A program made the position numbers and the translations under genes. Positions 3,001-28,735 of a DNA stretch of 64,000 nucleotides are shown here, piece after piece. This stretch comes from Escherichia phage vB_EcoM_G17. Positions within the stretch are counted from its first letter, which is position 1; every line of letters starts with the position of its first letter. The DNA lies in the sequence record MK327931.1, one strand, 5' to 3'. The notes beneath the pieces were generated by a model. That model was not told the origin of the DNA. It was given only the letters and a program-made list of their open reading frames with translations, and ran no database searches.

Positions 3001-6000
3001 AGCCATTCAAAATTACAAAAACTGGAAATAAAACATCTTCTGGTATTGATATTTGTGTGGTTGAATATATTGCACCTGAAATTTTAGGTTTAGTGTCTGG
3101 ATCTTTAAATCATAGAGCAGAACCTTGGACATATGGTGATATGGGTGACATGGAATTTACATACATGAACACTACATTGTTTGCATATGACCAAATGATG
3201 CTTTTGTATAAAGCTAAACCAGCACAATTTGCTAACTATTTCTGGGATACCCGCAACGATAACTTAAAAGAAGTATTCACTGATGGTTCACAATTCCTTT
3301 ATGGTGATACACGTAAGCGTATTAATTTTGATAAAAATACAGTAGTTCATGGTGAAAATAGCACAAGAACAATTGGTTATCAAATGTTTGTAAGTGACCA
3401 TTTGATGTATCAAAATAAAAATATTACCACCAAGTATGGGGATGTAGTTCGTTCTTCTTATATAAATGTTGGTCATAAAATTGGAGGATTTACTAAAGCA
3501 GATCAGCTAACATTCAATGCTAAATCTTTCGGTCTTATTTCACAAGAAAACCAAACCATTGGTCTTGTTCGTTCTAATAATATCCGTGATGAGCAAATGA
3601 GTGCGATCAAAATTACTTGGAATGGTAGTGCATATCAGATTGATGGATATGATCTAGTTGGTGCTAAATTTAAATATAAACTTCCAGTAAAAAATGGTAG
3701 AAAAGTAACTCTTAAATTGGAAAACCGTAATGTTGTTCATTATAATGAATGGAAGTCTGAAGCTTCAATTGAATATGGTAAAGTTTTCAATAGTTACCAA
3801 GAAGTTTATACTTTTATTTGTGGATATGGTGAATATCTTAAAGAACATGGTTGGATTTTTGAAGATGTAAATGATAGTGGTGCTCAACAAGATTGGAACA
3901 CTATTGCTAAAGATTTCGTGATCTGGAGTCAGAATTCTCTAGTAACTGGTGAATTTATTTCTTGTACCCCAAGTGCTGCAAACGCTAAATTTGGGGCAGA
4001 CTTTGGTTCAGTACAATCTATTACGCAAAATAATGGTGGTGTATGGTCATTACTTGATGATAATAACCAAGGTATTCGCCAATATGAAATTGAAACTTCT
4101 CGTATTGGAAATATCTTCACTGTTAGAACTTTAGAATCTAATAAACGCATTGCATTGATTCGTTTAAGTTTGTGTTCATATGAACATGCTGTTATTTTTG
4201 ATGATAAAACTATTTTTGGTGATTACATTTATCAGCCAACATATGGTTCTATTCAAGAACTAATTAAAATGTATGGATATATTACTGGTTCATGGACTGG
4301 TCGCCTACAAGCTCCTGGATTTATTATCTTGGAAGCTGGAACACTACCATCATTTGAAAAATTAGTGTCGGATTTCCAACATTATTATGATAGTGAAACT
4401 CCAGTAAGTGATGTACAATTACAAGAGTTGTCAAACCATTTGATTGGTTATCAATCTCGTGATTATCTACAGCGTATGATTAGTAGTGATGTTAGTCGTG
4501 TTGATTTCTATAAAGGATTCATTCACGATAAAGGTACTAACCAAGTTTTAGAACGTGTACTTCGTGTTTCTAAATCATATGACACTGATGAATATAAAGC
4601 ATTACAAGAATGGGCATTTAAAATTGGTACATATGGTAATATTGATGGTAAGAAAAACCTTCAATTTAAACTAATCAATGACCAATTTAAACAACAACCT
4701 CAAATGGTTTCTTTTGATGTAAATGCAACTTCAAATGGTAATGGTAATCATATTGTATACTTCGGTGAGCAAGGTAAAGATCCTCGTTGGATTACACGTC
4801 CAAATGGTAAGTTCTCATTCCCAATGCGTAGTGGAAGAAGTGAAAACATCCAACTTCCAGATATTGGTCCAGTAACATTGGATGAAGTATCGTACACAAC
4901 AAAAGATTTCAGTACTGCATATAATGACCGCATAACTTATACTAATGGTAAAGGTGAAAATCCTGAATCTGTGTGGATGTTTAAAGACGGTAATGGTTTG
5001 TGGAACATTTTTGAATTGGTTGATACTAATGTACAAATGGTTTCTATAACACCTATTGAAAATACCGATGTGTATGCTGAACAATTTTGTAAAGTAACTT
5101 TAACTGATAATGTACCACTTGAAGATGGTGATTATTATTATTTTGTTGATGAAACTAACTTTATGCCAGATACTTTAACAGTAGAAAGTCAATATTATAC
5201 TGCTGGTTCTGATCCTAAAGTTATGGTAGTTCCATTTGACACTTCTATTGATATTGAATTTACTGATCCAGATACACGTCCACGTTTGTATCGTTATGTA
5301 TCACGTTTTGCCAGTACTGATGATCGTCAAGCTTACATTGACAAGAAATATAGTTTTAAAGCACCACAAAGTACTTTATTTGATCGTCCAACGACATATG
5401 ATGAACGTACTAACATTACTGAGCTATATCTAAACGTTTATGACCCAATTAATGGTGTTATTCCAGGTGCGGCTATGCAAAACGTAACATATACTTCACC
5501 AGTTGATCCTGCACAGTATAATAGTAATGGAGAGTTAATCCAGGCTTGGGGTGCTGATAAAGTTGGTCAAGTATGGTGGAACACTAGCACTGCATTTTAT
5601 TTGGATTATACTCGTGCAATTTATGACGCAGACGGTAATGTTGATATTGATGCAACCAATGAATACAAACGTTACAACTGGGGCCGTTTGTTACCACATA
5701 GTACCATTGATGTGTTAGAGTGGGTTTGTTCACCAGTTGAGCCATATAACTGGGACAAATACTGTAAAGATGTTGCTAAGAAAAACAAAAATAATACTAT
5801 GTATCTACCAAGTGGAACTGCACTTGAAGATAATTATAGTACATTTTTGGAATATGATAGTTCAACTGATAGTTATGTAACAAAATACTATTTCTGGGTA
5901 CGTGATACAATTTATGTACCACCACTACATACCAGAACGAAATCATGTACTGACATTGCTCGTATTATTAAAGATCCAACACAGCTAAACATTCCTTGGT

Positions 6001-9000
6001 TCGCTCCAATAAATGAAAACTCGTTTATTCTTAGTAATATGCAATTTAAAGTGAATGATGATACCAGTATTTTAACTGTTTCTTATTACATGGATAGTAC
6101 TGAAGTTGTTAAACATGACCAGTATCAACTATGTAAAGAAGGTGACAGCTATAACTTTAACCCACTAATTTGGGATTCAATGTGGAACTCACTAATTGGT
6201 CAAGAAACAACTGAATCAGGTTCTGTGATTAATTTATTATATCCAGATGTTGATAACGGTTTAGGATCAAACAAAACTTGGTTCCAAAATGTTATAGAAG
6301 CTCGTAGAAACTTTGTAGAAAGTGCTAATAATTATTATAGGTCACAAAACATAACCACTAATAGTGTTGTTATGGAAGATGTGTTTAATGTTAAAACCAC
6401 TGAAGTTAACCCTAATGAAGTTTCTTTCCGTGTGTTGTCTTACAATAATGAATTAGTTATTGCAGTTGAAAGTGATAAATTTAAAGAAAATGACGCTGTT
6501 ATTTTAAGTACTAGTGGATATCTACCAAATCCATTAACTTCTAGTGCTGTTTATTTTATTCACTTCGACGAAAATGGATATATTCAGTTAATGAATAGTC
6601 CAGCAAACGCGGGTAGTGTTGTTACTATAACGTTAGAAAACAAAGGTGAGGGACAACATAAAATGATTAAACAATCTGATTATGTTGAATCACTAGGAAC
6701 CTCATTAGACATGACTCAGTACTGGTCATATGCTGATTGGTATGATGTTGGATATGATAGTAACACGACTTATACTCAAGAGTCAAGCTTAGAAGATGCT
6801 AATACTAAAAACTACCAAGTTGGCGATATTATCAGAGTTACCGATAGTGAAAACATTTGGACATTGTATATTAAATCACAATCACGCGATTCAATTTATT
6901 GGAAAGCGATTGGTCGTGAAAACAGTACAGTTGAACTCAATGATATGCTTTACGCAGATTATAGTGTTCATAATGATAATGGTTCACTAAGCAATCGTGA
7001 AATCAACGTTCGTAAAGCACTAGCTTTACTCAAAAATTCTTTCGATTTACATCAAAGCGAAATTGTTTTTGATATGGTCAAATATGTACATGTTGAACAA
7101 AGTGTTGTGGATTGGGTATTTAAAACATCATATATCTATATTGTTGGTTTGGAACAATCATTAGTTCAAAACTATTCAAACGATAATTTGATTAATCAAA
7201 TTGTTGAATATTTTGAAGAAGTTAAACCTTATAGAACTAAAATTCGTTCACAAATAGAGCAAAAGACATCTGATGATGATTTAATAAAAGGTCTATGTAA
7301 TGATTTAGATCCTAATGGATATATTTTCGTTGATGGTTCTTGGATCAAAACTGAAAAAGATATTTGGGATTATGAGTACGCTCAATTTAATGAAATTACC
7401 CAAAAATGGGAACAGGTAGGTTCACTACCAAGTGATTTCGTTACACCAAATAGAAGATTCCAAGAAATTGATATTATTATGCATTATGATAATATTCAGT
7501 GTAAACCAAATGAAGATTTGGCAAGCATAAATGAATTAGTAAGTGTTAATAACAAATATCAATCCAATGAAAAGGATGCTGTTAGTAACTATGAATTACA
7601 ACGTTATATATATTCTTTCCCAGAATATAGTGAAGAAACTTTCGATCTTCTTATTGCTTATCAAATGCAAATCTACTATCCAGAATTGGATGTAACACTA
7701 GGAACAGCATATGGCGTTAACCAGTGGTATAAAGACCATGCGGAAGATTTAGAAGCAACTGATGAATTCACTGCTACATTGGAACGTGTTTATAAAGAAT
7801 CAACGCATAACGATATGTTTACTGACCTTAGACAATATGTTCAGTATAACACATTGGCAAACCGTTTGAAACTTTATAAAGATATAAGTGATGAGAAAAT
7901 TCACGATGAAGTTGGATGTGGATTTAGTGGACTTACTTATAATGACAATCCTAGTACTAGACTTCCATTAGGCTTTTCTTCTAGTAATGATTATAACTAT
8001 GGATATTTTGAAATAAGCAGTGAATTGTATCAAAAATACATTTCATTAATTAAAGATAAAAATCCTGACGCATCAGACTATGAAGTAAAAGTTAAACTTG
8101 AAGTTGAGTATGGTGTATATGTTTATCGTTATGATGAAGTAGGTGGTGATACCCGTTTCTATACTGATGCTATTCACGTATTAGCAGGTATGAGAGGGTT
8201 ATTCGACAAAGACGCTACTGATAAGTACGAAAAAGCTGAAGAGATTCTTAGTAAGACCCCAATTGATATCTATGCAATTACAATGATTCCACGAAAATAT
8301 GTTTACTTAAATGTTAACGGTGTATATCAAAGTATACCTGATGAACAAAGTATTGATGATTTCATGGAAGATTATTTTATCACAAATGGTGAAATGGTTG
8401 AACTAGCTGAAATAAATCTTGATGATTTACCACTAGATCAAAATAATCCAATGTATTCTGATTATCAATATATACTTGATAGTATTACTGAAGCTAAGTA
8501 CTTCAATGATATGAATGCATTTGATAACCTAGCATTGGAATCTCAAACTTCTTCAATAAAATGGGAAGTTAAAGATGATGAAGTTGATCCTTATATTGTG
8601 GATATATCTGACATAAACCCTTCTGGGCGTGATGTAGGTCAAATTAGATTTACAGTTGATGGATATGGGTTTGACAATGTATCTCTTGTACAATTACGTG
8701 ATAACAGCAGATATCAAACTGAAGGTATGGCAATTATCAATCCATATAAACATACAGAAGCAATTGTAAGTATTCCTTCATATGCTAAGATTGAAAATGA
8801 TATTAATAAAACAACATCGAAGTTTGATGAAAAATATTTCTATCGTGTGAGATCTATTAATAGCTTAACTGAAGCAGAAATAGTTGACAATGACCTATCT
8901 GATGGTGATAAGGTGATGATTTTCACTCCTGATGGTGAAGATTTTGTGAGATATCAAAATCACACATGGGAAACAATCTTGCGTGTATCTAACATCAAAA

Positions 9001-9926
9001 ACAATACAACTCCGATCCTATTCACTGTAAGAAATACAGGTAAGGAAACGATTGAATTGATTGATGAGAGTACTGGTGCAGTTCTCCGTTATGATAACAT
9101 CACTCTTGCACAACAAAATGAGCCAGTACAGCCTCTAGCATTGAACATTGTTCGTGTTAGAACATTTGCTGACCCTGAATTTGTCAAGAATGGTATTAAA
9201 TTGTATGAACAAAATAGAAATTACACCATTGATGTAATTAATTATGATGTTTTCTACGATACTACTTTAAATGGTGGTAAGTACAATGACGGAATAACAC
9301 CAGATGACGTTGACGTTTGGATAATCTCTAATGAAATATTTGATGTTGATGGAATTACTATCGATAACGGTTATAACTTACCAATTACGGGTGCGGGAGT
9401 TCTTAGTGAATTGGCAAGAACTAAAATGACTGATAGTTTAGAAATCAACGTTATCGAATATGATTCAAGTGTTATTCAACCGTTTAGAAATAATGAAGGG
9501 ATATGGGTTTATGGATTCCCAATGGTTGACGGTATGTATATCGGTGTTGTTGGTGGTACTGTTACTAACATCACAACCATTAGTGAAGAAAATACAACCT
9601 ATGTTTCTCAACCTAAATCAATAAGTCCTTATAGTATTAGAAATAATGTTTTATCCGGTTCAGCCGCAAACATGAATGATATTATATCGATTGGATATGA
9701 AAAAGTTGAAGTTAGAAATGCAAATAATTTACTCCGTGGTGTAATGTATAGTGCAGAACATGATTTTAAACTTAATACTACATATTCTTTCAATGGAATT
9801 AATTTAGGTAATTATGATATGTTAAAACGTTACACACAAAATAGTTACACTATAGATCTTTCAGTATACACTGATAGTCTACAAGTTAGTGGTAATGATA
9901 TTAAAAATATATTATTAGTTAAGTAA
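27..9926 (+). CDS. Giant 3299-aa protein of unknown function (probable virion-associated protein); start uncertain
   Basis: Single uninterrupted 9.9-kb ORF; N/D/Y/T-rich, no motif recognised by eye. Track start is TTG; first ATG is at 39; frame is open to position 3, so the gene may begin upstream of the window. Ends at a hairpin terminator. Confidence 0.8.
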   Translation: MPEWMQGLEDIQKVSDDVIQQWFNPAENELVDGYIGDMGSPAAAGNIFLHESTVARQLYQLSTAYVSKNDDSTIRSIQFYDDLVGYMNHYGALTDNESRLFNGKFYAWTPAINPNKMNNFSSYLWDTKNSYNITSPDYIVMERGALNGNTWSLQNFWYTLGETLEDGSILTEELMQDSRFIRARAPIIEYNKNIELINYGTKFRGTVDLFSDIIKPEDIVQKDINSGIRIDGIIPQDGMRILFTSIGNNGENNRIYNVYVKKMQDGTRVYGLALDPEEETESRPSGEPQDGDVVLITKGNEYGNSSMYWNGSLWVRAQSKTSVNVFPKFQLYDRNGIKLDNSTTYPSSNFKGSELFGFKINYNYATDSVYGYNIELGDYNYYIYENFLQSQRYTYDHLGKEVEIDGLYYYNIIDENNEMNLQTDWVRSEEYSKQFVKQTPQVQRTDMYRVFSTVYDMEVFKEPVDGMYAYVIEVDRTYQYYKADRETYLDWHPITGDGVQIVKYDHTFELAQKVLDNDSDIIEVVVDGVDVSKYTKNVSKGQVQSITLDSTVELDEDSVIQIRTYSSTVTPNKELGAYEVPINLQNNPYNSNIIYINQGDYTLHFQDIIQKNITRGSSDDFNDYEERLAKGLVNNGVGTKIIQNEASMLPLMAHTANEDIDLFEATMFMQSEYFRFINKFNTQMLRMYDENPSDFLQNSAANIVDAILTTINMGRDSSFPFYYDNVGSTSGFIRAFIPPTPQFLGILQAYVPEKATFLTAGSKPSCYNISHTGIISKAYRVINGVDKMDDVVYELENRIFNSIDNKFKDVDYVPVLNSDDLFPTPYFTKTEYSAEEKQTLLLRGYINFTATNGISNSTHDYDPNNWRTWNYTGTYYVVNGQSTEIPARGSWRAIYTDQYGTYRPATHPWEMFGFTQRPTWWNQEYEPTAVQVGERDSDVVYVYEALVMNEQGDLVPSGLWDIDGTIGDSSTGTILFGDRRGQYDKYKRFGVQPFKITKTGNKTSSGIDICVVEYIAPEILGLVSGSLNHRAEPWTYGDMGDMEFTYMNTTLFAYDQMMLLYKAKPAQFANYFWDTRNDNLKEVFTDGSQFLYGDTRKRINFDKNTVVHGENSTRTIGYQMFVSDHLMYQNKNITTKYGDVVRSSYINVGHKIGGFTKADQLTFNAKSFGLISQENQTIGLVRSNNIRDEQMSAIKITWNGSAYQIDGYDLVGAKFKYKLPVKNGRKVTLKLENRNVVHYNEWKSEASIEYGKVFNSYQEVYTFICGYGEYLKEHGWIFEDVNDSGAQQDWNTIAKDFVIWSQNSLVTGEFISCTPSAANAKFGADFGSVQSITQNNGGVWSLLDDNNQGIRQYEIETSRIGNIFTVRTLESNKRIALIRLSLCSYEHAVIFDDKTIFGDYIYQPTYGSIQELIKMYGYITGSWTGRLQAPGFIILEAGTLPSFEKLVSDFQHYYDSETPVSDVQLQELSNHLIGYQSRDYLQRMISSDVSRVDFYKGFIHDKGTNQVLERVLRVSKSYDTDEYKALQEWAFKIGTYGNIDGKKNLQFKLINDQFKQQPQMVSFDVNATSNGNGNHIVYFGEQGKDPRWITRPNGKFSFPMRSGRSENIQLPDIGPVTLDEVSYTTKDFSTAYNDRITYTNGKGENPESVWMFKDGNGLWNIFELVDTNVQMVSITPIENTDVYAEQFCKVTLTDNVPLEDGDYYYFVDETNFMPDTLTVESQYYTAGSDPKVMVVPFDTSIDIEFTDPDTRPRLYRYVSRFASTDDRQAYIDKKYSFKAPQSTLFDRPTTYDERTNITELYLNVYDPINGVIPGAAMQNVTYTSPVDPAQYNSNGELIQAWGADKVGQVWWNTSTAFYLDYTRAIYDADGNVDIDATNEYKRYNWGRLLPHSTIDVLEWVCSPVEPYNWDKYCKDVAKKNKNNTMYLPSGTALEDNYSTFLEYDSSTDSYVTKYYFWVRDTIYVPPLHTRTKSCTDIARIIKDPTQLNIPWFAPINENSFILSNMQFKVNDDTSILTVSYYMDSTEVVKHDQYQLCKEGDSYNFNPLIWDSMWNSLIGQETTESGSVINLLYPDVDNGLGSNKTWFQNVIEARRNFVESANNYYRSQNITTNSVVMEDVFNVKTTEVNPNEVSFRVLSYNNELVIAVESDKFKENDAVILSTSGYLPNPLTSSAVYFIHFDENGYIQLMNSPANAGSVVTITLENKGEGQHKMIKQSDYVESLGTSLDMTQYWSYADWYDVGYDSNTTYTQESSLEDANTKNYQVGDIIRVTDSENIWTLYIKSQSRDSIYWKAIGRENSTVELNDMLYADYSVHNDNGSLSNREINVRKALALLKNSFDLHQSEIVFDMVKYVHVEQSVVDWVFKTSYIYIVGLEQSLVQNYSNDNLINQIVEYFEEVKPYRTKIRSQIEQKTSDDDLIKGLCNDLDPNGYIFVDGSWIKTEKDIWDYEYAQFNEITQKWEQVGSLPSDFVTPNRRFQEIDIIMHYDNIQCKPNEDLASINELVSVNNKYQSNEKDAVSNYELQRYIYSFPEYSEETFDLLIAYQMQIYYPELDVTLGTAYGVNQWYKDHAEDLEATDEFTATLERVYKESTHNDMFTDLRQYVQYNTLANRLKLYKDISDEKIHDEVGCGFSGLTYNDNPSTRLPLGFSSSNDYNYGYFEISSELYQKYISLIKDKNPDASDYEVKVKLEVEYGVYVYRYDEVGGDTRFYTDAIHVLAGMRGLFDKDATDKYEKAEEILSKTPIDIYAITMIPRKYVYLNVNGVYQSIPDEQSIDDFMEDYFITNGEMVELAEINLDDLPLDQNNPMYSDYQYILDSITEAKYFNDMNAFDNLALESQTSSIKWEVKDDEVDPYIVDISDINPSGRDVGQIRFTVDGYGFDNVSLVQLRDNSRYQTEGMAIINPYKHTEAIVSIPSYAKIENDINKTTSKFDEKYFYRVRSINSLTEAEIVDNDLSDGDKVMIFTPDGEDFVRYQNHTWETILRVSNIKNNTTPILFTVRNTGKETIELIDESTGAVLRYDNITLAQQNEPVQPLALNIVRVRTFADPEFVKNGIKLYEQNRNYTIDVINYDVFYDTTLNGGKYNDGITPDDVDVWIISNEIFDVDGITIDNGYNLPITGAGVLSELARTKMTDSLEINVIEYDSSVIQPFRNNEGIWVYGFPMVDGMYIGVVGGTVTNITTISEENTTYVSQPKSISPYSIRNNVLSGSAANMNDIISIGYEKVEVRNANNLLRGVMYSAEHDFKLNTTYSFNGINLGNYDMLKRYTQNSYTIDLSVYTDSLQVSGNDIKNILLVK

Positions 9927-9934
9927 TAAAAAAA

Positions 9935-9967
9935 GGAGAGCATTATGCTCTCCTTTTCTTTTTTTAT
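9935..9967. terminator. Bidirectional intrinsic terminator between convergent genes
   Basis: Perfect 8-bp stem GGAGAGCA/TGCTCTCC with 3-nt loop, A-run upstream and T-run downstream; sits between the stop of the giant ORF (+) and the stop of clpA (-). Confidence 0.65.
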
Positions 9968-12252
9968 ACTAGTGCTTTATCTACAGCTTTGGTACGTTTC
10001 GGCTTAATATCGATTTTACCATCAATAACATCAAATGTAATGTTACCACCATTCACAAGTGAACCACACAACATTTCTTTAGCTAGTGGTACACGAATGT
10101 TTTGTTCAATGGTACGTTTCATTGGACGTGCACCCATACCAACTTTTACCCCATTTTTCGCAAGCCATTCACGTGCAGCTTTTGTCAATGTAACTTTAAC
10201 ATTACGGTCTTTGACTTGTTCATTCAAACCACCCATGAACTTATCAATGATGCTGTCAATAGCTTCACTGCTTAGGTCTTTAAACGTAACGATACTATCA
10301 ATACGGTTAATAAACTCTGGTGGCAAGAATGCTTTAATTGCCTTGTCCTGTGCAGTGTCACTACCGCTCATACCAATGCTACGCTTTGTTGAATCAGCCG
10401 CACCAAGGTTTGTAGTCATAATAACAGTTACGTTATTAAAATATACAGTTTTACCTTGAGAACCAGTCAGACGACCTTCATCCAAAACCTGTAGGAAGGT
10501 TAGTAGTACTTTACGATCTGCTTTTTCAATTTCATCAAGTAACAGTACTGCATTAGGGAACTGCTCAATTTTATCCAACAGTAAACCGTTACCAGAATCA
10601 TGACCAACATAACCTGGAGGTGAACCAATTAGTTTAGAAACAGTATGTTCTTGAGAAAATTCTGACATATCAAAGCGAATGAGTTCCGCACCAGTTGCGT
10701 CTGCTAATGCTTTGGTAATTTCTGTTTTACCAGTACCAGATGGTCCAACAAACATAAATGCACCCTGAACACTAGATTTGTCACGCAGTCCTGCACGAGC
10801 TACCATCACGTTATCAACTAATTTTTGAATAGCTTCCTCTTGACCGTATACACGTGAGCGTAGTGCATCTGGTAGATTACGCATACGATCACTTTCAGTA
10901 CATGCAACCACGTTGATATCCAAATTGGCAATACCAGCAACAACTTCTTGAATCAAATTGGCAGTAATAAGCTTACTATTGTTGTCACGTGAACGAACTT
11001 TAGCCGCAGCAGCATCCATTAGATCAATTGCTTTATCTGGGAAGTGCTTATTCTTCAGGAATTTATCACTGAGAGAAATTACAGCATCCATTGCATCAGA
11101 TGTGAACTCAACATTATGGAATTTTTCATACGTTGGTTTCAAACCATTAACAATTGCACGAGTTTCATCAATTGTCGGCTCAACTACGTCAATTTTCATA
11201 AAACGACGAGTTAATGCACTATCTTTCTCGATATTTTTACGATATTCATCATATGTTGTTGCACCAATTACACGAATCTCACCACGTGAAAGTGCTGGCT
11301 TAAGCATATTGCTCATGTCCATAGAACCATTACTTGCGGAACCAGCCCCAACCATAATATGAATTTCATCAATGAAAACAATAGTATTTTCACGTTTCTT
11401 TAGTTCTTTTAGCAAATTGTCGATGCGTTCTTCAAATTCACCACGATACTTAGTACCAGCAGTCAATGCACCAACATTTAGTGAAAGAATTTCAACGTCT
11501 TTTAGGTGTTCAGGTACGTTACCATCAGCAATAGCTTGTGCAAGCCCGTCGATGATTTGTGTTTTACCTACACCAGCTTCACCAGTGAGAATAGCATTCT
11601 TTTTGGTTTTGCGAGCAAGAGTCTCAATCAATGCAGACAATTCTTTCTGGCGACCAATCATAGGATCTAGTTTGCCTTCTTTTGCAAGAGCAGTTAGATT
11701 CGTTGTATAGTCTTCCAAACCTTTTTGTTTAGATGATTGCTGCTGTTGGGCCACTTTTTTATCTCCAATCGGTTCGTCATTAATACTTTGTAAGTTGATA
11801 CCCTTATCAAGTGACTCAACGTGTTTCTGTAATGCACGTGCAGCTTCAGTACAGCTAACACCTTCTTCTTTTAACGCAGCTTCTAGTGCTGTGTTAGGGA
11901 AAGACAGACATTCGAATAGAACAAAATATGCATCAATCGAAAAATCATCACTTTTTAGTTGTTCAATAACTGATTTTTTAGAAAGCTCATGTACAACGCG
12001 ATTCACTAGAAGTGAAGTGCGATTCGCGTCTTCATCTTTAACACTTTTTGGTGCATGTGGAACTGTTGTATTTTTAAGATAGTTCATTAGGCGGTTGTGC
12101 AGTTTGTCTGCATCAATGTTCATATCTTCAAATACGTTCTTGATGCTATCAATAGTCAGTACTGTGGCACTTACGTGGTCAATAGTCAAGAATGTATGAC
12201 CTAGAGATGTTGCCAGTTCGTCGCTTTTTTTGAACAATTGAGTAAGATTCAT
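9964..12252 (-). CDS. clpA: ClpA-like ATP-dependent Clp protease ATP-binding subunit (two AAA+ domains)
   Basis: Walker A GEAGVGKT (D1) and GPSGTGKT (D2), Walker B FIDEIH and [16 protein letters not shown] sensor motif; co-linear with E. coli ClpA by eye (N-domain, TTNL..DP.IGR.KEL, no M-domain); IGM tripeptide at the ClpP-docking loop position. Trimmed to ATG at 12252 (AGGAGA SD); track start 12273 is GTG. Confidence 0.9.
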
Positions 12253-12292
12253 GTATTCTCCTATGTGATTCACGTCACTCTAATTAATAAAC

Positions 12293-12320
12293 ATTATATC
12301 ACATTCTTACGGTTTGTCTA
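12293..12320 (-). promoter_or_regulatory. sigma70-type promoter upstream of clpA (TAGACA-N16-TGnTATAAT)
   Basis: Minus strand reads TAGACA, 16-nt spacer, then TGATATAAT (extended -10); about 40 nt upstream of the clpA ATG. Shares the core GTGATATAAT with the promoters at 36353-36474. Confidence 0.5.
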
Positions 12321-12362
12321 CAAGGTAAATAAAGATATACCCGATTTATTTTGGAGACAATC

Positions 12363-19172: not shown

Positions 19173-21314
19173 ATGGCAGTATTTTCTAATTTTGAAGGAA
19201 CTATGCAGCCCAAATTCATATTGGGGAAAAAAGGTGCTTCAATAAATTTTATCAATGATTCAGTTTCTATAAAAGATTATCTAGGAGAACAGTTCCTACC
19301 ACTGAAGGTAGGAACTTCATCTGACCCTAATTCAGCAGTTAACGTAAAATATCTTGAAGATAACCCTAATGCATTATTTGGTGTTGTACCCCCTACCGAT
19401 GATGTAGGAAAGAACAATAATACGTATTTTCAAATTGATGAAGATGGTATTGTTGATATTTTTGCAAAAAGTAATGGTACATGGGTAAAATCATTATACA
19501 TTAATAAAAAAGTTCTATCCAGTAAAAATGGTGGCGATTTCATCGGACTTATTACTGGAGGTACAGTTCAACAGGCCCAGTTTTATATAACACCAGAAGA
19601 ATTTGGTGCTAAAGGTGATGGCGAAACTGATGACACTGCTGCTGTAAATTTATGTGCTGCTTATGCTAAAGAAAATAAAATCCAAATTCAGGCTGGTGGT
19701 AATTACCGTATCAAAACTGCAATATACCTAGAAGATGTAACTTGGTTTGGGGGAACTATTACTGGTAACGGTGGTACTATGGTATCTGTTATTAATTCCC
19801 AAATACAATTTGCAACACTTACTGGATGTTATTTAAAATTCTTCGGTGGCGATGGTAAGTTTTATTTTAATAAATTTATAAACATCACAAGTACTGCTGC
19901 ATTTTTAATGCAAGGTATGACACAACCAGGAACAATAGATTTTTGCTTTAATGAAATGACCCAATGTAAGTATGGTGTTCTTCAACAAGGTACTGGTGAG
20001 AAAATGAAGGTTGGTAGATATTCATATAACCATATTCATGATATCTATGGTGATGCAATTGAACTAAACGTAATTAACTCACATTATCCTGATGGTTTTG
20101 TGATTGAAGGAAACGTAATTGAAAACGTTGATGGTTCTAACGCTCCAATCCCACTTTCAAACTGGGGCATTGGTATTGGCGTTGCTGGTTCTGGTCCTTA
20201 TGGTTTAGATGCACCAGATACACAATATGTCAGAAACTTTGTTATTAAAAATAACAGACTATATAATGTTAGACAATGTATACACGTTGAATTAGGAATG
20301 GACTTTAAAATACTTAATAATGAAGTTTATCCATCATCTTTAGTTTCTGTTGGTACTGGATTAACCACTGCTGGTGTTATAACTTATGGTTCGAAAGAAT
20401 TCATTATTGATGGGTTGACTGGTCATTTGCTTAATGATCCTTCTATCACAAATAGAATGGTTTCAATAAACTGGGGTGTAACTTCTGGTCGTTTTGCTGG
20501 ACCACCTAGAAACTTTAAAATTTCTAATCTCTATATTCCAGAGTCTTCTATACTTGTTTATACTTCCGGTTCTGATAATTGGTTAAATAATACAGAATTG
20601 AGCAATATCACTTGTTCTAAAATCCTTTGGCGTGGTTTGCCATCATCATCTAAATTTAGTGATATTAGAACTAAAGAATTAGATGTAATTGGTCAACACC
20701 TCTCTACCGAAGGCGAAGGTGGTGGTATCTATACTCGCTCTAAATATACTTATACTAATTGGACTAACTGTGTTGTTCAAGATGATTGTAATGTTTCAAA
20801 ATATAGTTTTTCTAAAATGTATGTAGACAGAATAGACCAATCATCTAATAACTTTAAAGTTACAACTGCAATCGATGGTACAGGTCACCGTGGCCCAGTA
20901 CTGATACCTGTAGTTGAGCAATATTATATTCCATACGATACTTTTCCTGGGGGACGCTATTTCTCTGAAGGCACGATTATTCATAAACAATCGGGTGGAA
21001 AATATATTGTAACTGTTGGTGGTTCTTTTTTCGGAAAATATGACACAATTAGACAAACGGTAGCAGGACAAACATACATAGAAGCATTGGGTGTGTCATG
21101 GGGTGAAAACCAATATGCAAAAGCTGCTGGTACTGAGATCATTATATCCGGTGCTGGTGAAAATGGTGGTGATTTGAGAACGTATATAACTCGTGCAGTG
21201 TATGTTGTAAACAACGTATATAGAATTGATATTGCAGATCCTATCATAACAGCAACTGCCGCTGGTGCAGCATTAAAAGCTGCCCAACCCGTAACTTACA
21301 TAACCCTACCATAA
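19173..21314 (+). CDS. Tail fibre/spike protein with beta-helix-like central region (possible depolymerase)
   Basis: N-terminal ~25 aa nearly identical to the next gene; central region rich in short N/G/I/V-containing strands typical of parallel beta-helix folds; GGAGGA SD. Confidence 0.6.
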   Translation: MAVFSNFEGTMQPKFILGKKGASINFINDSVSIKDYLGEQFLPLKVGTSSDPNSAVNVKYLEDNPNALFGVVPPTDDVGKNNNTYFQIDEDGIVDIFAKSNGTWVKSLYINKKVLSSKNGGDFIGLITGGTVQQAQFYITPEEFGAKGDGETDDTAAVNLCAAYAKENKIQIQAGGNYRIKTAIYLEDVTWFGGTITGNGGTMVSVINSQIQFATLTGCYLKFFGGDGKFYFNKFINITSTAAFLMQGMTQPGTIDFCFNEMTQCKYGVLQQGTGEKMKVGRYSYNHIHDIYGDAIELNVINSHYPDGFVIEGNVIENVDGSNAPIPLSNWGIGIGVAGSGPYGLDAPDTQYVRNFVIKNNRLYNVRQCIHVELGMDFKILNNEVYPSSLVSVGTGLTTAGVITYGSKEFIIDGLTGHLLNDPSITNRMVSINWGVTSGRFAGPPRNFKISNLYIPESSILVYTSGSDNWLNNTELSNITCSKILWRGLPSSSKFSDIRTKELDVIGQHLSTEGEGGGIYTRSKYTYTNWTNCVVQDDCNVSKYSFSKMYVDRIDQSSNNFKVTTAIDGTGHRGPVLIPVVEQYYIPYDTFPGGRYFSEGTIIHKQSGGKYIVTVGGSFFGKYDTIRQTVAGQTYIEALGVSWGENQYAKAAGTEIIISGAGENGGDLRTYITRAVYVVNNVYRIDIADPIITATAAGAALKAAQPVTYITLP

Positions 21315-22235: not shown

Positions 22236-22270
22236 AACCAGACTTGTTCTAAATAAGTCTGGTTTTTATT
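22236..22270 (+). terminator. Intrinsic terminator
   Basis: 9-bp stem ACCAGACTT/AAGTCTGGT with 9-nt loop, followed by TTTTTATTAT. Confidence 0.6.
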
Positions 22271-22365
22271 ATATTTGCTTTTGTCAAATAACATATTAAT
22301 TGTTGGATAACAGCATAATAAAACTAAATATATACATATTAACAAGGTTATAATGGAGGGTATAA

Positions 22366-25300
22366 ATGTACTCAATAAAAACTGACTTAGATATTACTGG
22401 TGCTGGTACGGTTGGTAAGGATCTTTTAGTCAAAGGAAATGCTGTTTTCAACAATAACCTAACTGTAAATGGTACTGTAACTTTTGCAAATGCAACTTTT
22501 ACTGCCATTGAATCATCAACTGCCAACATTACATCTACTTTAGATGTAGGTGGCAAAGCAACACTTTCTGGTGGTCTTGGTGTTGAGGGTAATACTACAA
22601 TCGGTAGTGCAGTTGTCGGGTCTGATACAGCAACAATTAATTCAAACGCTACCTTTAACGGTACTGTATCAGTTGGTTCTGATTTTACACAAACTGCTGG
22701 TACAACCACTCTACAAGCAACTAAAGTTAAAAACTTAGAAGTTGCTGAAACAACAGCATTTAAAGGTAATATTACTGCTGATGTTGGGACTACTGCTGCA
22801 TTTGATAAAATTACTGCTAATACCGCAGAAATTACTAATGTAAGTACAACAGATATTAGTAGTACTGGTACTGCTACATTTAACGATGTGACAATTAGTG
22901 GTACACTTGGTGGTGAGTTTAATCTATCTGACTTAAATGCAGTAACATTGAACGTTACTGGTGCATCTAACCAACAAGGTGCAGTAACTTTCGGTGCTAA
23001 CGTAACTGGTATTAACAGTACTGCTACTTTTAAAGACATTCGTATTGGTTCTAACTCTGAATCACAAACCTTCAGATTAAGCTTCCCTTACACTGCTCCT
23101 GGTAAACGCCCAACTGTTATTCTACAAAACGAAATTCAGTCCGAGCTAATGTCACCTGCAAACTTGACAGTATTGACCTCTGCTTCTTTTGGTAATGCGT
23201 CATTATCTTCTTATGGTATTACTGGTAATGGTCTAAACAAATTAGATTATCTAACAGTTTCTGGTAACAATACACAATCACCAGACACACCACTATTAGA
23301 AGTTCAAAAAGGAAAAACTAAAGTTGCTGACTTTGAAGTAACCGGAACTGCAACTATTCCAAATATCGAAAGTACTGGTACTGCTAATTTTAATAACATT
23401 AATGTTTCTGGTCTTCTTGGTGGAACGTTCCAACTAGACGATATTAATGCAGTATCTTTGAACGTTACTGGTGTAACTTCATTAGTTGGTGGTGTTACTC
23501 TTGGTTCTAATATTACTGGTTATAACAGTACTGCATCCTTTAAAGCTATCAGCTTAGGTCAAAATAGTCAAGATGCGGCAGTGAAACTAGGTTTTGGATA
23601 TACTGCACCAGGTCAACGCCCAACAGTTATTCTACCTAACGAAGTTCAATCAGAAGTCGTTTCTCCTTCTACATTGAACGTTCTTAAAACAGCAACTTTC
23701 GGTAACGCTTCTCTTTCCACTTATGGTATTACTGGTAACGGTCTAAACAAACTAGATTACCTAACTATTACTGGTAACGAAACACAAGCTCCAGGTACAC
23801 CATTCCTACAAGTTGGTGGTAAAGCAATTCTTAATGATGTTGAATTTACTGGAACAGTAACTGGACTAACTGTTGATGTTAGTGGGCAGGATCTAACACC
23901 TAATTCTGTTGTCGCGGCAGCAAATATTAAAGGTGCAACACTTGAAAGTACTGGTAACACTACCGTGGGTGCTAAACTAACTGTTACTGGTGATATTGCT
24001 GGTACAACTGCAACTCTTTCTGGTGCATTATCCGCTGGTTCAGTAAGTTCTGGTTCTATTACTGGTACAACTTCTGTATCTGCACCAACAATTAGTGCAT
24101 CTACTGAAGTAACGGCCCCTACTATCACTGCGAGTGGAACTGTAAGTGGGCAAACAATTAACGGTACTAATATTAGTGCAACAACTCTGACTGCACCAAC
24201 TATTAGTGGTAATACTAACTTTACAGAAAATGTTGATATTACTGGTAGCTTAACTGTTGGTTCTCTAGACTTGAGCACTACCGATATTAATGCTAAATCA
24301 ATCACTACTACTGCTGGTGCAACTATTGGTGGTGATTTAGTAGTTCAAGGCTCTTTTGATTTATCAGCAGCCGACCTTAATGTTAAATCATTAACTACTT
24401 CTGGTATTGTTAAAAGTAATGATCTTGTTAATGCTAACGTACTTCCAGTACTTAATAGTACTACCATAACGGCAACTACTGTTAATGCTGATGATATAAC
24501 TGTTACCGGATCTGCTAATTTGGGTACAATTTACTCAAGCTCATCTGTTCTAGTTGGGTCAACTTTAACTGTAACTGGTGAAACTACAACTGCATCGTTG
24601 GTTACCCCAACCATTTCAAATGCAAGTGGTGTCACTATTTCCAATAATACAAATGTAACTGGTGACCTAACTGTTACTGGTGCAGTTATTCCAGGCTCTA
24701 TCGATCTAGCAACAACTGATGTTAATGCTAAATCCATTACTACTACTGCTGGTGCAACTATTGGTGGTAACCTAACTGTTAATGGTACAGTAGATCTTAC
24801 TACGGCTGATGTTACTGTCAAATCTTTAACTAGTACTGGTGCAATTGTTAGTAATGAATCCACAATTAGTAGTGTTCTACCTAAACTTCAAAGTACTGAT
24901 GCAACTATTGCAACCCTTGGTTCAACAACTGCAAATATTACTAATTTGAATGTTACTGGTGCATCTACCGTAGCTGACGTAACTTCTTCAGGTAAAGTTA
25001 AAGCAGTTTCTGTAGAAACCCCAACAATTAGTAACGTTGATGGTGTATCTATTTCCAATAATACATCTATTACTGGTGACCTAACAGTTTCTGGTACAGT
25101 AACACCAGGTGCAATTGATTTGAGCACAACTGATGTAAGTGCAAAATCCATTACTACTACCGCTGGAGCAAATATTGGTGGAGATCTTGTTGTTTCTGGT
25201 ACAGTTGATTTAAGTGGTGCTGATGTATCTGTTAAATCTCTAACAAGTACTGGTATTATTACAGTTAGTAGTGCAGAAGGTATCAACGTTCTACCTAAAG

Positions 25301-27891
25301 TTCAAAGTACTGAAGTTACAGTGTCTGCTCTAAATGCAACAAATGCAGTAGTTTCTGGTGATGTTTCAGCAGCAACAGCTTCAATCTCAGGTGCAATTAC
25401 TGGTGGGTCAGCAACACTATCTGGTGTTGGAACTGCTCTAAATGTAACTAATAACGCAACTGTTGGTGGTGTACTTACTGTTGGTTCTATTACTTCAGCG
25501 GCAGAAAATGTATCCATTACTAAAAATACCGCGATTACTGGTAATTTAGCAGTATCTGGAACACTAACTGCGGGTGTTATTGATCTTAGCACAACTGATG
25601 TGTCTGTGAAGACATTAACTTCTCTAGGTGATGCAACCGTTCAAGGTAACTTAACTGTTGATGGTACTATTAACCTAAGTTCTGCAAACATCGTCGGTGT
25701 AACACTAGAAAGTACTGGCTCCACTACCGTAGGTACTGATTTGATACTAACTACTGGTAACATTACAGGTAGTCCATCTATTTCTGGTAACTTAGGTGTA
25801 ACTGGCACTACAACTTTAACTGGTGCAACAACAGTTTCAAATACATTGAATACTGCTGGTAAACTAACAGTTAATGCTGGTGGAATTCAGGTTGTTGCTG
25901 GTGGTATACAAGTTGATTCTGGAACTATTACTGCTTCTAGTGCTAATATTTCTGGTAGCTCAACACTTAATAGTGCTACTGTAACCACTACACTAGGTGT
26001 TACTGGTGCAGCAAGTATGAATGGTGGTTTAACTGCTTCTACATTGGATGTAACAGGTGATAGTACAGTACAAAAACTAACTGTTAAGGGTGTATTTGTT
26101 CCTGAAGGTGGTTTGGACTTATCCGGTGCTGATCTTAGTGTGAATAGCGTAACTGCGGCAACCACATTAAGTGTTACTGGTGCTAGTACTCTAACTGGTG
26201 GTGTTTCCACTTCAACTGTTACTGCATCCGGTAAGGTAACCGCACAAGAACTAAGTACTGGTACATTGGATGTAACCACAAATGGAACTGTTGGTGGAAC
26301 TTTAGGTGTAACTGGTAAAGCAACTGTTGGATCACTAGATTCAGGTGCAATCTCTGCAACATCTGGTACATTTAGTACTACACTAGATGTGACTGGTGCA
26401 GCGACCTTTGGTAATAATGTTAACATTACTGGTACATTAACCCCAGGTGCATTGGATTTAGCTAGTACTGATGTAGTTGCTAACAGTCTTTCTGTAGCTA
26501 CAACTCTACATTCAGATGGCAACGCAACAATTGGTGGCACATTAGGCGTAACTGGTGCAGTATCTGCTCCATCAATCGCTCTTAATGGTGAAGGTGCTGC
26601 GTTAGCAGTTACTAATAACGCAACAATTGGTGGTACATTAGGTGTAACTGGTGCTACAACTTTAGGTTCTCTAACAACCTCTGGTGCAGTTAAAACTGGT
26701 GCTGATGTTATTATCGGTACTAAAATTGGCGATCAACCAGAGACAGTTCAGATTTTCCCTAATACTTACATTGCTGGCTCCTTGCGTGTAGATGGTGGTA
26801 TCAACGCTGATATTGACGTTAGTGGTCAAACAATTGAACCTTATGCAGTTGTTGCGGCGGACACTATTAGTGCAGCGGGTAATATTACTTCTGGTGCAGA
26901 GTTGATTTCCAAATCAGCAACTATTGGTGATGTTGGTTCACAAAACAACAACTTAACAATCAATGGTAACGTAGTTAACAACGGTAACTTTACAGTAACT
27001 GGTCTACTTAACGCAACACTAAACCAAGCAAACTCTGACGTGGCTGTTAAATCATTAACTGCAACCAACAGTGTTGCTGCTGGTACTAGTATTACCGCAG
27101 GTACAAGTATTACTGCAACTGGTCTACTAAAAGGGAACACCCTTGAAGTAACTACTACTGGTTCATTTGGTGGTGCAGTAACAATGTCAAGTGGTGCTAA
27201 CATTACTGGAACCGTTGGAATTACTTCTGGTAACCTAACTGTTGGTGGTGATATTTCTGCAACAGGTACTGCAACCCTAGCAGCAACTTCAGTAACTACC
27301 ATTACTACTTCTGGTGCAGCAACACTTGCTAGTGCATCTGTTACTGGAGCAGCAACAATCGGTGGTACTTTAACTGTTACTGGTTTAATGACTGCAAATG
27401 GTAGTGTTGTTTTAGGTGACGCTGCTGCTGATACATTAACTGTCAATGCAACATCTTCTTTCAAAGAAAATGCAGTATTTGATAAAGATGTAACTGTAAC
27501 TGGTCAATTAACAACTACTAATGCTGACCTAACTACTACAACAGTAACTACTAAAAAATATGATGTTATTCCTAATCAAGTAACTTCTTCTGTTATCGCA
27601 CCAACTGGTACTTGGACCCCAGACGGTACTAGCAACGTATACTTTATCACTCTAGATCAAGATACCACTCTAGCACCAATCACTGGTCTAATCGGTGGTG
27701 GTAAAGCATCTTCAGTATACATTTATGTGAAACAAGATGCAACAGGTAATAGAAACTTTACTACTGATGGTACTTATGCGGTTGTTGATGGCACACTGAA
27801 CAAAACTGCAAACTCTGTAACTATCTACCAAGTCATTTATGACGGTGTGAGTCCAGTAACAGATATGTTTATTGCACAACGTACTGCTTAA
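22366..27891 (+). CDS. Long repetitive tail fibre protein (1841 aa)
   Basis: GGAGGG SD; T/S/G/N/V-rich with two families of long tandem repeats; antisense ORFs on the track inside it are composition artefacts. Confidence 0.75.
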   Translation: MYSIKTDLDITGAGTVGKDLLVKGNAVFNNNLTVNGTVTFANATFTAIESSTANITSTLDVGGKATLSGGLGVEGNTTIGSAVVGSDTATINSNATFNGTVSVGSDFTQTAGTTTLQATKVKNLEVAETTAFKGNITADVGTTAAFDKITANTAEITNVSTTDISSTGTATFNDVTISGTLGGEFNLSDLNAVTLNVTGASNQQGAVTFGANVTGINSTATFKDIRIGSNSESQTFRLSFPYTAPGKRPTVILQNEIQSELMSPANLTVLTSASFGNASLSSYGITGNGLNKLDYLTVSGNNTQSPDTPLLEVQKGKTKVADFEVTGTATIPNIESTGTANFNNINVSGLLGGTFQLDDINAVSLNVTGVTSLVGGVTLGSNITGYNSTASFKAISLGQNSQDAAVKLGFGYTAPGQRPTVILPNEVQSEVVSPSTLNVLKTATFGNASLSTYGITGNGLNKLDYLTITGNETQAPGTPFLQVGGKAILNDVEFTGTVTGLTVDVSGQDLTPNSVVAAANIKGATLESTGNTTVGAKLTVTGDIAGTTATLSGALSAGSVSSGSITGTTSVSAPTISASTEVTAPTITASGTVSGQTINGTNISATTLTAPTISGNTNFTENVDITGSLTVGSLDLSTTDINAKSITTTAGATIGGDLVVQGSFDLSAADLNVKSLTTSGIVKSNDLVNANVLPVLNSTTITATTVNADDITVTGSANLGTIYSSSSVLVGSTLTVTGETTTASLVTPTISNASGVTISNNTNVTGDLTVTGAVIPGSIDLATTDVNAKSITTTAGATIGGNLTVNGTVDLTTADVTVKSLTSTGAIVSNESTISSVLPKLQSTDATIATLGSTTANITNLNVTGASTVADVTSSGKVKAVSVETPTISNVDGVSISNNTSITGDLTVSGTVTPGAIDLSTTDVSAKSITTTAGANIGGDLVVSGTVDLSGADVSVKSLTSTGIITVSSAEGINVLPKVQSTEVTVSALNATNAVVSGDVSAATASISGAITGGSATLSGVGTALNVTNNATVGGVLTVGSITSAAENVSITKNTAITGNLAVSGTLTAGVIDLSTTDVSVKTLTSLGDATVQGNLTVDGTINLSSANIVGVTLESTGSTTVGTDLILTTGNITGSPSISGNLGVTGTTTLTGATTVSNTLNTAGKLTVNAGGIQVVAGGIQVDSGTITASSANISGSSTLNSATVTTTLGVTGAASMNGGLTASTLDVTGDSTVQKLTVKGVFVPEGGLDLSGADLSVNSVTAATTLSVTGASTLTGGVSTSTVTASGKVTAQELSTGTLDVTTNGTVGGTLGVTGKATVGSLDSGAISATSGTFSTTLDVTGAATFGNNVNITGTLTPGALDLASTDVVANSLSVATTLHSDGNATIGGTLGVTGAVSAPSIALNGEGAALAVTNNATIGGTLGVTGATTLGSLTTSGAVKTGADVIIGTKIGDQPETVQIFPNTYIAGSLRVDGGINADIDVSGQTIEPYAVVAADTISAAGNITSGAELISKSATIGDVGSQNNNLTINGNVVNNGNFTVTGLLNATLNQANSDVAVKSLTATNSVAAGTSITAGTSITATGLLKGNTLEVTTTGSFGGAVTMSSGANITGTVGITSGNLTVGGDISATGTATLAATSVTTITTSGAATLASASVTGAATIGGTLTVTGLMTANGSVVLGDAAADTLTVNATSSFKENAVFDKDVTVTGQLTTTNADLTTTTVTTKKYDVIPNQVTSSVIAPTGTWTPDGTSNVYFITLDQDTTLAPITGLIGGGKASSVYIYVKQDATGNRNFTTDGTYAVVDGTLNKTANSVTIYQVIYDGVSPVTDMFIAQRTA
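22870..23900 (+). repeat. Intragenic tandem repeat, about two copies of a ~515-nt (~170-aa) unit
   Basis: Protein segments LGG.F.L.D.NAV.LNVTG...PG.RPTVIL.NE.QSE..SP..L.VL..A.FGNASLS.YGITGNGLNKLDYLT occur twice in tandem. Confidence 0.7.
24230..25630 (+). repeat. Intragenic tandem repeat, about 3.3 copies of a ~420-nt (~140-aa) unit
   Basis: Segments [LI]DL.TTD[IV].AKSITTTAGA.IGG.L.V.G..DL..AD..VKSLT.TG recur at about 24260, 24700, 25110 and partially 25575. Confidence 0.7.
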
Positions 27892-27955: not shown

Positions 27956-28735
27956 ATGTTCACATATGTGAAAGGAAATTCAAAAGAAAATTATGAATTG
28001 GGAAACATTATTTCCAATCCAATTGGTGTAAAAGGACTTAAAGAACGTCCTGGTGCAACACCAGAAGATCCACAAACCTATCGTTATCTTTATAGTGATA
28101 TTAGAACTCTTTATGGTATTTCAAGTAAAGATGGTTCCCCAGTAGAACCTAATGATGCTGTTAGAAAAGAAGAAGGTTTTTGGTGGTTAGTGTATAAAAA
28201 TGTTGGAAATGTTAATGCTATTGAACAACCGTTGGAGTTTATTAAATTAAAAGATGAAAATCAACCTATTGTTGAATTTTTAGAAGACGCTACCGAAGAA
28301 TATAAAGCACTAACTGTTCTTAAAACATATCATTATATTGATATGCCAATAGCAGATGTTAAAGTTGATTTAAAAGCAAGAACTATATCAGAACGTACAA
28401 ATCGTATGAATTCTGGTTATATGTTCAATGGTCATCGTTACAGTACTGATATGTCTGGTCGTCAAATGCTTCTTAATTACTATACACAAGTCACTTCAGG
28501 TTCTGAAAGTGTTTCTATTTTTCTTGATGACGCAATTGTAAAATTATCTGCTACTGAAATGACACAACTATACACTGGAGCCTTTGCTATGATTGAGCAA
28601 TTGTTTACAGAATGTGACAATCAGTGTGCAGCAATTGATGCAGTTGATGATTTAGATCCTGATGCAATTTATAAGGCACAACAAGCTGCAACTTGGGTAT
28701 ATGAAGGTGTTGATATTCCTGAACGTATACGTTAA
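27956..28735 (+). CDS. Hypothetical protein (259 aa) between fibre genes
   Basis: ATG with GAGG SD; no motif recognised; position suggests a fibre-associated or assembly role (inference only). Confidence 0.6.
   Translation: MFTYVKGNSKENYELGNIISNPIGVKGLKERPGATPEDPQTYRYLYSDIRTLYGISSKDGSPVEPNDAVRKEEGFWWLVYKNVGNVNAIEQPLEFIKLKDENQPIVEFLEDATEEYKALTVLKTYHYIDMPIADVKVDLKARTISERTNRMNSGYMFNGHRYSTDMSGRQMLLNYYTQVTSGSESVSIFLDDAIVKLSATEMTQLYTGAFAMIEQLFTECDNQCAAIDAVDDLDPDAIYKAQQAATWVYEGVDIPERIR

Follow-up and report, generated by a model that had tools for sequence, protein, structure and literature searches.

The question raised by this locus is whether the large fibre gene of Escherichia phage vB_EcoM_G17 contains discrete tandem repeats and, if so, whether those repeats still change in number. 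The gene occupies 22366-27891 on the + strand of a 64,000-nucleotide (nt) stretch of sequence record MK327931.1 (the window, to which all unqualified coordinates refer), and is recorded in the open reading frame (ORF) listing as a frame of 5526 nt encoding 1841 amino acids (aa). The original prediction, made from the sequence, held that two repeat families at 22870-25630, with about 2 copies of 515 nt and about 3.3 copies of 420 nt, build much of the fibre shaft, that they are prone to copy-number change by recombination, which would alter fibre length, and that they generate the long antisense ORFs opposite the gene. We consider it likely that the region is the modular shaft of a large virion fibre of an Asteriusvirus jumbo coliphage (121Q/PBECO4 type), and that its repeat array is stable at present. 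Module number does change over evolutionary time, by whole units and in frame.

The fibre gene is 100% identical at the nucleotide level to 121Q gp571, phAPEC6 gp256 and the corresponding genes of SHEFM2K, Sharanji and vB_EcoM_E9.1; these carriers are jumbo myophages of approximately 350 kb belonging to the genus Asteriusvirus. GenBank labels for the gene vary between 'long tail fiber proximal subunit', 'tail fiber protein' and 'hypothetical protein'. The protein is matched by PHROG 4549 'tail fiber protein' (E 8.9e-227, 756 bits, seven matched stretches). Pfam and NCBIfam scans of the whole protein returned no family, and PF26209, which had been pre-listed for homologues, had no match in local Pfam scans. 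Mass spectrometry (MS) of purified phAPEC6 virions detected 15 unique peptides of gp256, the identical 180-kDa protein (PMC7247149), and CBB_226, the homologue in phage CBB, is likewise a virion protein, detected through 10 peptides (PMC5259590). Relative to the orthologues of ph0011 and UE-S1, substitutions in the sense frame are distributed over the three codon positions as 56/41/161 and 58/38/188 respectively, and this third-position excess identifies the + strand ORF as the selected reading frame. No paralogue of the fibre was found elsewhere in the window by tblastn. The gene belongs to a fibre family, annotated but uncharacterised, that is shared by Rak2-like and Asteriusvirus jumbo phages and is distantly related to the long tail fibre (LTF) of the Pectobacterium myophage phiTE.

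Discrete units are evident when the gene is compared with itself. Self-blastn produced sharp diagonals at three fixed offsets: 510 nt (22861-23304 against 23371-23814; 69% identity, E 3e-46), 435 nt (24277-24899 against 24712-25313; 69%, E 1e-56) and 465 nt (25044-25136 against 25509-25601; 77%, E 2e-15). The best 40-residue diagonal scores under BLOSUM62 were 172 (offset 170 aa), 165 (138), 152 (145) and 133 (155), compared with maxima of just 54-60 in five shuffled sequences. A repeat-finding scan recovered one register with a spacing of 510 (family A) and another of four copies starting at 24195, 24630, 25044 and 25509 (family B), besides one further family with three copies and one with two copies of 275 nt at 73%. 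At the nucleotide level family A extends over 22861-23814, approximately 1.9 copies of 510 nt, and family B over 24195-25636, approximately 3.3 copies of about 438 nt, so that the predicted repeats are confirmed to within a few bases. The periods are 510 nt (170 aa) for A and 435, 414 and 465 nt for B; every one is divisible by three and the repeats are therefore in frame. Tandem Repeats Finder, even at a low threshold, reported short arrays of 9-21 nt only and no array with a period of 400-510 nt, being blind to the large units because their copies are too diverged.

These results leave scarcely any probability that the gene contains no discrete units but only the low-complexity similarity of a fibre rich in Thr, Gly, Ser and Val. 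Such a background is genuine: families of 29, 24 and 13 short (T/S)xG-type motifs, 33-43 nt long and 60-79% identical, occur throughout the gene, and its composition is skewed (T 18.9%, G 12.1%, S 10.6%, V 10.2%, A 10.0%, N 7.4%). However, the large units clearly exceed this background of short Thr/Gly/Val motifs, both in the fixed-offset diagonals and in the margin over shuffled sequence; furthermore, a profile of the B units matches each clear copy with independent E-values (i-E) of 1e-45 to 1e-62, and orthologues differ in length by exactly one period.

Profile hidden Markov models built from the window's own copies were used to define the module map. The profile from the four clear B units added two degenerate units, at aa 1204-1333 and 1343-1489, and the modular part therefore continues past 25630, to approximately 26832. 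Together the A and B families account for 50% of the gene, or 66% when the degenerate units B5 and B6 are counted, which bears out the view that repeats make up much of the shaft. Along this chain of in-frame modules, two 170-aa A modules are followed by a linker, by B modules of approximately 140-155 aa, four of them clear and two degenerate, and by a distal shaft and a compact C-terminal beta domain:

22366-22860, + strand: N-terminal region (aa 1-165), preceding the first A unit.
22861-23370, + strand: A1 (aa 166-335), 510 nt, found by self-blastn, diagonal scan and profiles.
23371-23880, + strand: A2 (aa 336-505), 510 nt, found by self-blastn and profiles.
23176-23265, with its partner in A2 at 23686-23775, + strand: most conserved A stretch, the putative crossover zone for the extra A unit of the relatives JP4 and CRJP21.
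23881-24195, + strand: linker (aa 506-610), containing the motif TVDVSGQDLTPNSVVAA.
24196-24630, + strand: B1 (aa 611-755), matched by the B profile in hmmsearch (i-E 2e-62).
24631-25044, + strand: B2 (aa 756-893), B profile i-E 2e-56.
25045-25509, + strand: B3 (aa 894-1048), B profile i-E 2e-57.
25510-25974, + strand: B4 (aa 1049-1203), B profile i-E 8e-46.
25975-26391, + strand: B5, degenerate (aa 1204-1342), B profile i-E 1.5e-4.
26392-26832, + strand: B6, degenerate (aa 1343-1489), B profile i-E 1.7e-6.
26833-27588, + strand: distal shaft (aa 1490-1741).
27589-27888, + strand: C-terminal all-beta domain (aa ~1742-1841), the probable distal tip according to AlphaFold2 (AF2) and homology.

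The likeness of B4 to B1-B3 at the nucleotide level is confined to its first part (the 465-nt offset). In shorter members of the family the single A unit likewise starts at around residue 160-180. A motif of the form D-V/I-S/D-G-Q-x-L/I-x-P-x-x-V-V-A-A is present at 23881-23940 (aa ~506-525) and again at approximately 26860-26920 (aa ~1499-1518), that is, directly after the A array and directly after the B array.

The copies are well separated from one another in sequence. A1 and A2 share 67% nucleotide and 61% amino acid identity, and B pairs share 52-70% nucleotide identity, B2 and B3 reaching 70% (55% at the protein level). Homologues that are only 30-40% identical to the fibre protein already possess the A1/A2 pair, and the A and B copies are old tandem duplications.

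Whether such an array is still labile can be judged from closely related genomes. In ten isolates from different continents and hosts, with 98.9-100% nucleotide identity, the gene is exactly 5526 nt long in every case; differences in gene length were first seen at a divergence of at least 4.6%. The array has none of the marks of a variable-number tandem repeat, in that Tandem Repeats Finder reported no array of these units, the copies in the window are 54-70% identical in nucleotide sequence where ~70-80% or more would be expected, exact matches extend to 19 nt for A1/A2 and to 30 nt for B1/B2 (24304 and 24739), a maximum for the gene as a whole, and length does not vary among the ten isolates. 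From the low identity of the copies and the constant length, the array would now be a poor substrate for recombination, and in the G17 genome it is probably not prone to change. The same observations make it improbable that the repeats are an active recombination hotspot, akin to a contingency locus, which generates fibre-length variants within populations. What speaks for a hotspot comes from more distant relatives, which differ by whole units in frame and, in JP4, CRJP21 and UB, carry newer copies that are 90% identical with exact runs of up to 71 nt; these three phages could be better candidates for instability than the G17 genome. Hence, the predicted tendency to copy-number change holds for homologues, which do differ by whole units, and fails for the ten near-identical isolates.

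The differences among relatives were located by gap analysis in an alignment of six orthologues, and they consist of integral units in frame (+170 aa and +112 aa). One insertion, in JP4 and CRJP21 (2129 aa), measures exactly 170 aa or 510 nt, which is the length of one A period. A second, of 112 aa or 336 nt, is shared by UB (1959 aa), JP4 and CRJP21 and represents one B-like unit in the B5/B6 region; the gap falls at nt 4018 of the 121Q gene (window ~26383), and the two copies of this unit in UB and in JP4 are 90-91% identical. Both insertions are missing from the outgroups ph0011 and UE-S1 (14-17% divergent). The comparison with related phages proposed alongside the original prediction thus yields copy-number variants at two places. 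Across 33 homologues the number of A units ranges from one to three and of B units from none to six, with protein lengths of 1065-2129 aa. A search with the A profile against 1.84 billion representative proteins found only 50 clusters with an A module, and the best A match of most shorter members falls at approximately residue 160-330, which suggests that A was amplified in the jumbo-phage lineage. Orthologues also differ by indels of six to seven codons, of 18 nt at alignment positions 24258 and 24523 and of 21 nt at 27206.

Repeats can mislead short-read assemblers, and the record of another relative, CMSTMSU, is visibly poor, so that the extra units of JP4, CRJP21 and UB might be suspected of being assembly artefacts. 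We regard this as very improbable. The copies are 75-90% identical and not identical, making collapse or expansion unlikely; JP4 came from sewage in China and CRJP21 from river water, and these separate isolates share one architecture at 0.6% divergence; a metagenome protein from ENA (P0002) carries three A units as well, at identical positions; and the reading frames are all open.

The structure of the JP4 array indicates how a unit may have been gained. JP4 has three A units, the first of which is 96.8% identical to A1 of 121Q. The second unit is a hybrid, its head being 90.5% identical to A2 of 121Q and its tail approximately 90% identical to the tail of unit 1 (in the +510 comparison). Identity between positions i and i+510 is 0.82-1.00 from gene nt ~811 to ~1400, about one period, while identity between i and i+1020 is 0.80-0.87 at gene nt 811-870 only; the high +510 identity begins in the equivalents of the most conserved A stretch (23176-23265 and 23686-23775). 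This pattern fits the footprint expected of unequal crossover between A1 and A2. We infer that units would be gained and lost by unequal homologous recombination in their most conserved stretch, possibly between diverged relatives that co-infect a cell. In some Asteriusvirus relatives whole fibre genes occur as tandem paralogues of about 1640 aa and 1906 aa (fEgEco12, locus 3001-7935 and 8085-12347; BF17, locus 1-2529 and 2679-8399), and duplication therefore operates at the level of the gene as well as the module.

The fibre itself, rich in Thr, Gly, Ser, Val, Ala and Asn, would most likely be extended, probably trimeric and beta-helical, with the A and B modules forming its shaft and the C-terminal domain its tip. 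Each module would extend the distance from the virion attachment end to the tip by a fixed amount, approximately 6-11 nm, and a change in copy number would alter fibre length accordingly. There is a weak periodicity of Gly and of Val/Ile/Leu at 6, 12 and 18 residues, and the six- and seven-codon indels fit a shaft with a short structural period. The bactofilin beta-helix family PF04519, which has a weakly similar 6/12/18-residue Gly/Val pattern, scored at best 26.4 bits against a gathering cut-off of 27.9 on the fragment 24196-25509, gave a weak sub-threshold signal in the N-terminal region too, and had no match on the full fibre protein; the resemblance is compositional or structural only. 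An AF2 monomer model of A2, based on 28 aligned units, was an extended chain with no secondary structure (predicted local distance difference test score, pLDDT, 73; predicted template-modelling score, pTM, 0.34), as might be expected of a chain that forms sheets only in an intertwined oligomer, with which the model is compatible without being proof. In a model of the C-terminal 190 aa, the last ~100 residues are all-beta (pLDDT 83-95). This domain is conserved across the fibre family and had no significant fold match in a Foldseek search of the PDB, the best being the capsid spike of Pseudomonas phage Pa223 (E 0.066, template-modelling score 0.34).

The sole relative of known structure, in a phmmer search of all PDB chains at E <= 1, is the phiTE LTF (PDB 9CUY/9MJN chain g, 793 aa; E 4.4e-30). 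The two proteins share one A-type module (query 380-606, chain 205-445), the C-terminal domain (query 1657-1838, chain 612-792; 51 bits, i-E 5e-13) and a recurrent DV-G-x-I-x-P-x-SV motif. The linker motif TVDVSGQDLTPNSVVAA aligns with the repeated DV(D/E)G..I.P.SV motifs of the phiTE protein, and the D-V/I-S/D-G-Q motif that follows each array, which aligns to these repeated copies, may be a hinge or node element. In contrast to the G17 fibre, the phiTE LTF is less than half as long, contains just one A module with little B-type shaft, and belongs to a group of ~150-kb phages (POP15-type matches) that are not jumbo phages; phmmer gave no alignment in the N-terminal baseplate-attachment region of phiTE (chain 1-204, query 1-379). 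The phiTE LTF is reported to be a trimer and is predicted to form an extended beta-helix of 51 nm from its 793 aa (PMC11972413).

Three points weigh against a stable, modular, trimeric beta-helical shaft. The extra units of JP4 (gene nt ~811-1910) and UB (gene nt 3917-4662) have diverged by approximately 10% from the copies next to them, yet overall JP4 and UB are only 2.6% apart; this mismatch points to import from a diverged donor or, alternatively, to an older gain with repeated loss. The predictions behind the trimeric beta-helix are of monomers only. Furthermore, the cryo-electron microscopy map of phiTE was built for residues 14-171 only, which lie outside the part homologous to the G17 fibre (PMC11972413). 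A simple recent duplication was considered as the source of the JP4 extra unit and rejected, since the divergence between the paralogous copies is greater than that between JP4 and UB.

Two further readings of the modules were entertained tentatively. The A or B modules, or both, might each bind a ligand, as glycan-binding nodes for example, with copy number tuning avidity or specificity in place of length, a possibility we rate as rather unlikely. Residues F75, Y77, D129, Y130, G135 and N136 are invariant across 28 diverged A copies, the core of A does not look like a solenoid (RLSFPYTAPGKRPTVILQNE...NKLDYLT), and the module is rare and fibre-specific, being restricted to the 50 clusters mentioned above; however, the A monomer has no compact fold in AF2, the units match no Pfam or NCBIfam domain, and the invariant residues could equally serve trimer packing. 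The other reading concerns the place of the fibre on the virion. Hairs are present on the tails of phAPEC6- and CBB-type jumbo phages, and in phAPEC6 on the capsids too; in CBB they measure 119 +/- 10 nm, and the baseplate fibres 29 nm. Scaling from phiTE (793 aa for a predicted 51 nm) would give the 1841-aa protein a length of ~100-120 nm, which matches the CBB hairs and not the baseplate fibres. A speculative reading is that the protein might form these hairs or whiskers instead of the six short baseplate fibres, with module number tuning reach or the number of binding nodes for different host surfaces. We offer this as no better than a minority view. For the shaft as we read it, the module map provides natural in-frame cut points, since an A unit of 510 nt and a B-like unit of 336 nt are both tolerated in nature; these could serve to lengthen or shorten a 121Q-type fibre and test reach against host range.

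Other comparisons place the array among known fibres. CBB_226 and the GAP32 'long tail fiber proximal subunit', from Rak2-like phages (Mimasvirus and relatives), are orthologous to the G17 fibre, and the gene order of structural protein, fibre, DUF4376 protein, structural protein and thymidylate synthase is common to CBB. CBB_226 differs in having ~35% identity over 77% of the query and in being shorter, with 1553 aa annotated; RaK2 itself has no homologue of CBB_226, according to the CBB paper (PMC5259590). The phmmer search of PDB chains, which include fragments of T4 gp34, returned the phiTE LTF and nothing else, and no gp34-type family was matched in Pfam or NCBIfam. T4 gp34 is a very long fibre protein with internal repeated shaft segments, and in both respects the G17 fibre is similar. 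The label 'long tail fiber proximal subunit' (gp34) on the 121Q record is nevertheless a historical annotation with no demonstrated relationship behind it.

Phage fibres and adhesins are known to evolve modularly, through duplication of repeats in frame and through unequal recombination, as in the shaft motifs of T-even phages, the collagen-like repeats of siphophages and the repeat indels of tape-measure proteins. The present family follows this pattern in gaining and losing whole units in frame, with junctions in conserved parts of the unit, and departs from it in that the units are unusually long (112-170 aa) and old, that two families occur in one protein, and that an array of the G17 type has no detectable instability in near-identical isolates. 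Repeat-built shafts are to be expected in phages, and the G17 array represents ordinary evolution and not a fast-evolving locus; the features particular to this case are its two long unit families and the natural variants documented for them. No published description of these repeats or of the length polymorphism was found in literature searches.

The antisense ORFs have a different origin from the one proposed. Seven, of 96-247 aa and all in one frame, lie within 22296-27464:

22296-23039, - strand: spurious antisense ORF.
23757-24305, - strand: spurious antisense ORF.
24531-24863, - strand: spurious antisense ORF.
24888-25286, - strand: spurious antisense ORF.
25302-25592, - strand: spurious antisense ORF.
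25887-26540, - strand: spurious antisense ORF.
26841-27464, - strand: spurious antisense ORF.

In this frame a stop corresponds to TTA, CTA or TCA in the sense strand read across codon positions 3-1-2, and therefore requires a sense codon for Tyr, His or Gln; those observed are all at Tyr or Gln codons. Together, Tyr, His and Gln make up 3.0% of the fibre compared with 7.0-12.6% of the products of five neighbouring genes, and stops per 100 codons in the antisense frame number 1.6 in the fibre gene and 3.1-6.0 in the neighbours. Shuffling the codons, which destroys the repeats and keeps the composition, left the number of stops unchanged (31 observed, 32.0 +/- 3.9 shuffled), and the observed open stretch of 281 codons lies within the 117-431 of the shuffles. 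Overlap with the repeats as originally delimited amounts to 24%, 13% and 0% for the three longest antisense ORFs, and the first antisense ORF is broken by two stops in ph0011. It is the scarcity of Tyr, His and Gln codons, and not the repetitiveness of the protein, that leaves the long antisense ORFs open; all seven are a spurious by-product of amino acid composition. They had thus been correctly dismissed as spurious and wrongly attributed to the repeats. Such ORFs in the fibre gene are compositional artefacts and should not be called. In the PBECO4 record (KC295538.1), a linear record that stops inside the fibre gene, antisense ORFs appear as 'hypothetical protein' coding sequences AGC35229-31 (locus 2931-3674, 5955-6245 and 6561-7607, - strand) and the fibre gene itself is unannotated; these are likely mis-annotations.

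The surroundings of the fibre gene include the following features:

22236-22264, + strand: strong terminator-like hairpin with a 13-bp stem and T-run, from a consensus scan only.
27956-28735, + strand: DUF4376 protein of 259 aa (Pfam E 3e-8), directly downstream of the fibre gene.
19173-21314, + strand: 713-aa protein with a pectate-lyase-like beta-helix, matching PHROG 6117 'colanic acid degradation', two genes upstream.
27-9926, + strand: 3299-aa ORF, apparently phAPEC6 gp245.

The hairpin sits between an upstream structural gene and the fibre gene, and its position suggests that the fibre gene may start its own transcription unit. Synteny of the DUF4376 gene with the fibre is kept throughout the family. 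In CBB the homologue, CBB_225, is abundant in virions, with an MS coverage of 68.5% (PMC5259590), and the DUF4376 protein may be a fibre-associated structural partner rather than a chaperone. The 713-aa protein probably serves as a depolymerase tailspike within the same adsorption-apparatus cluster. The 3299-aa ORF had no similarity to the fibre by tblastn within the window; phAPEC6 gp245 is a 382-kDa hypothetical protein of which 17 peptides were found in virions. In the CMSTMSU record (MH494197.1, 3001-10153) the fibre homologue is split into many short coding sequences named 'flagellar hook-length control protein FliK'; the splitting looks like frameshift or assembly errors, and the FliK name looks misleading and driven by composition.

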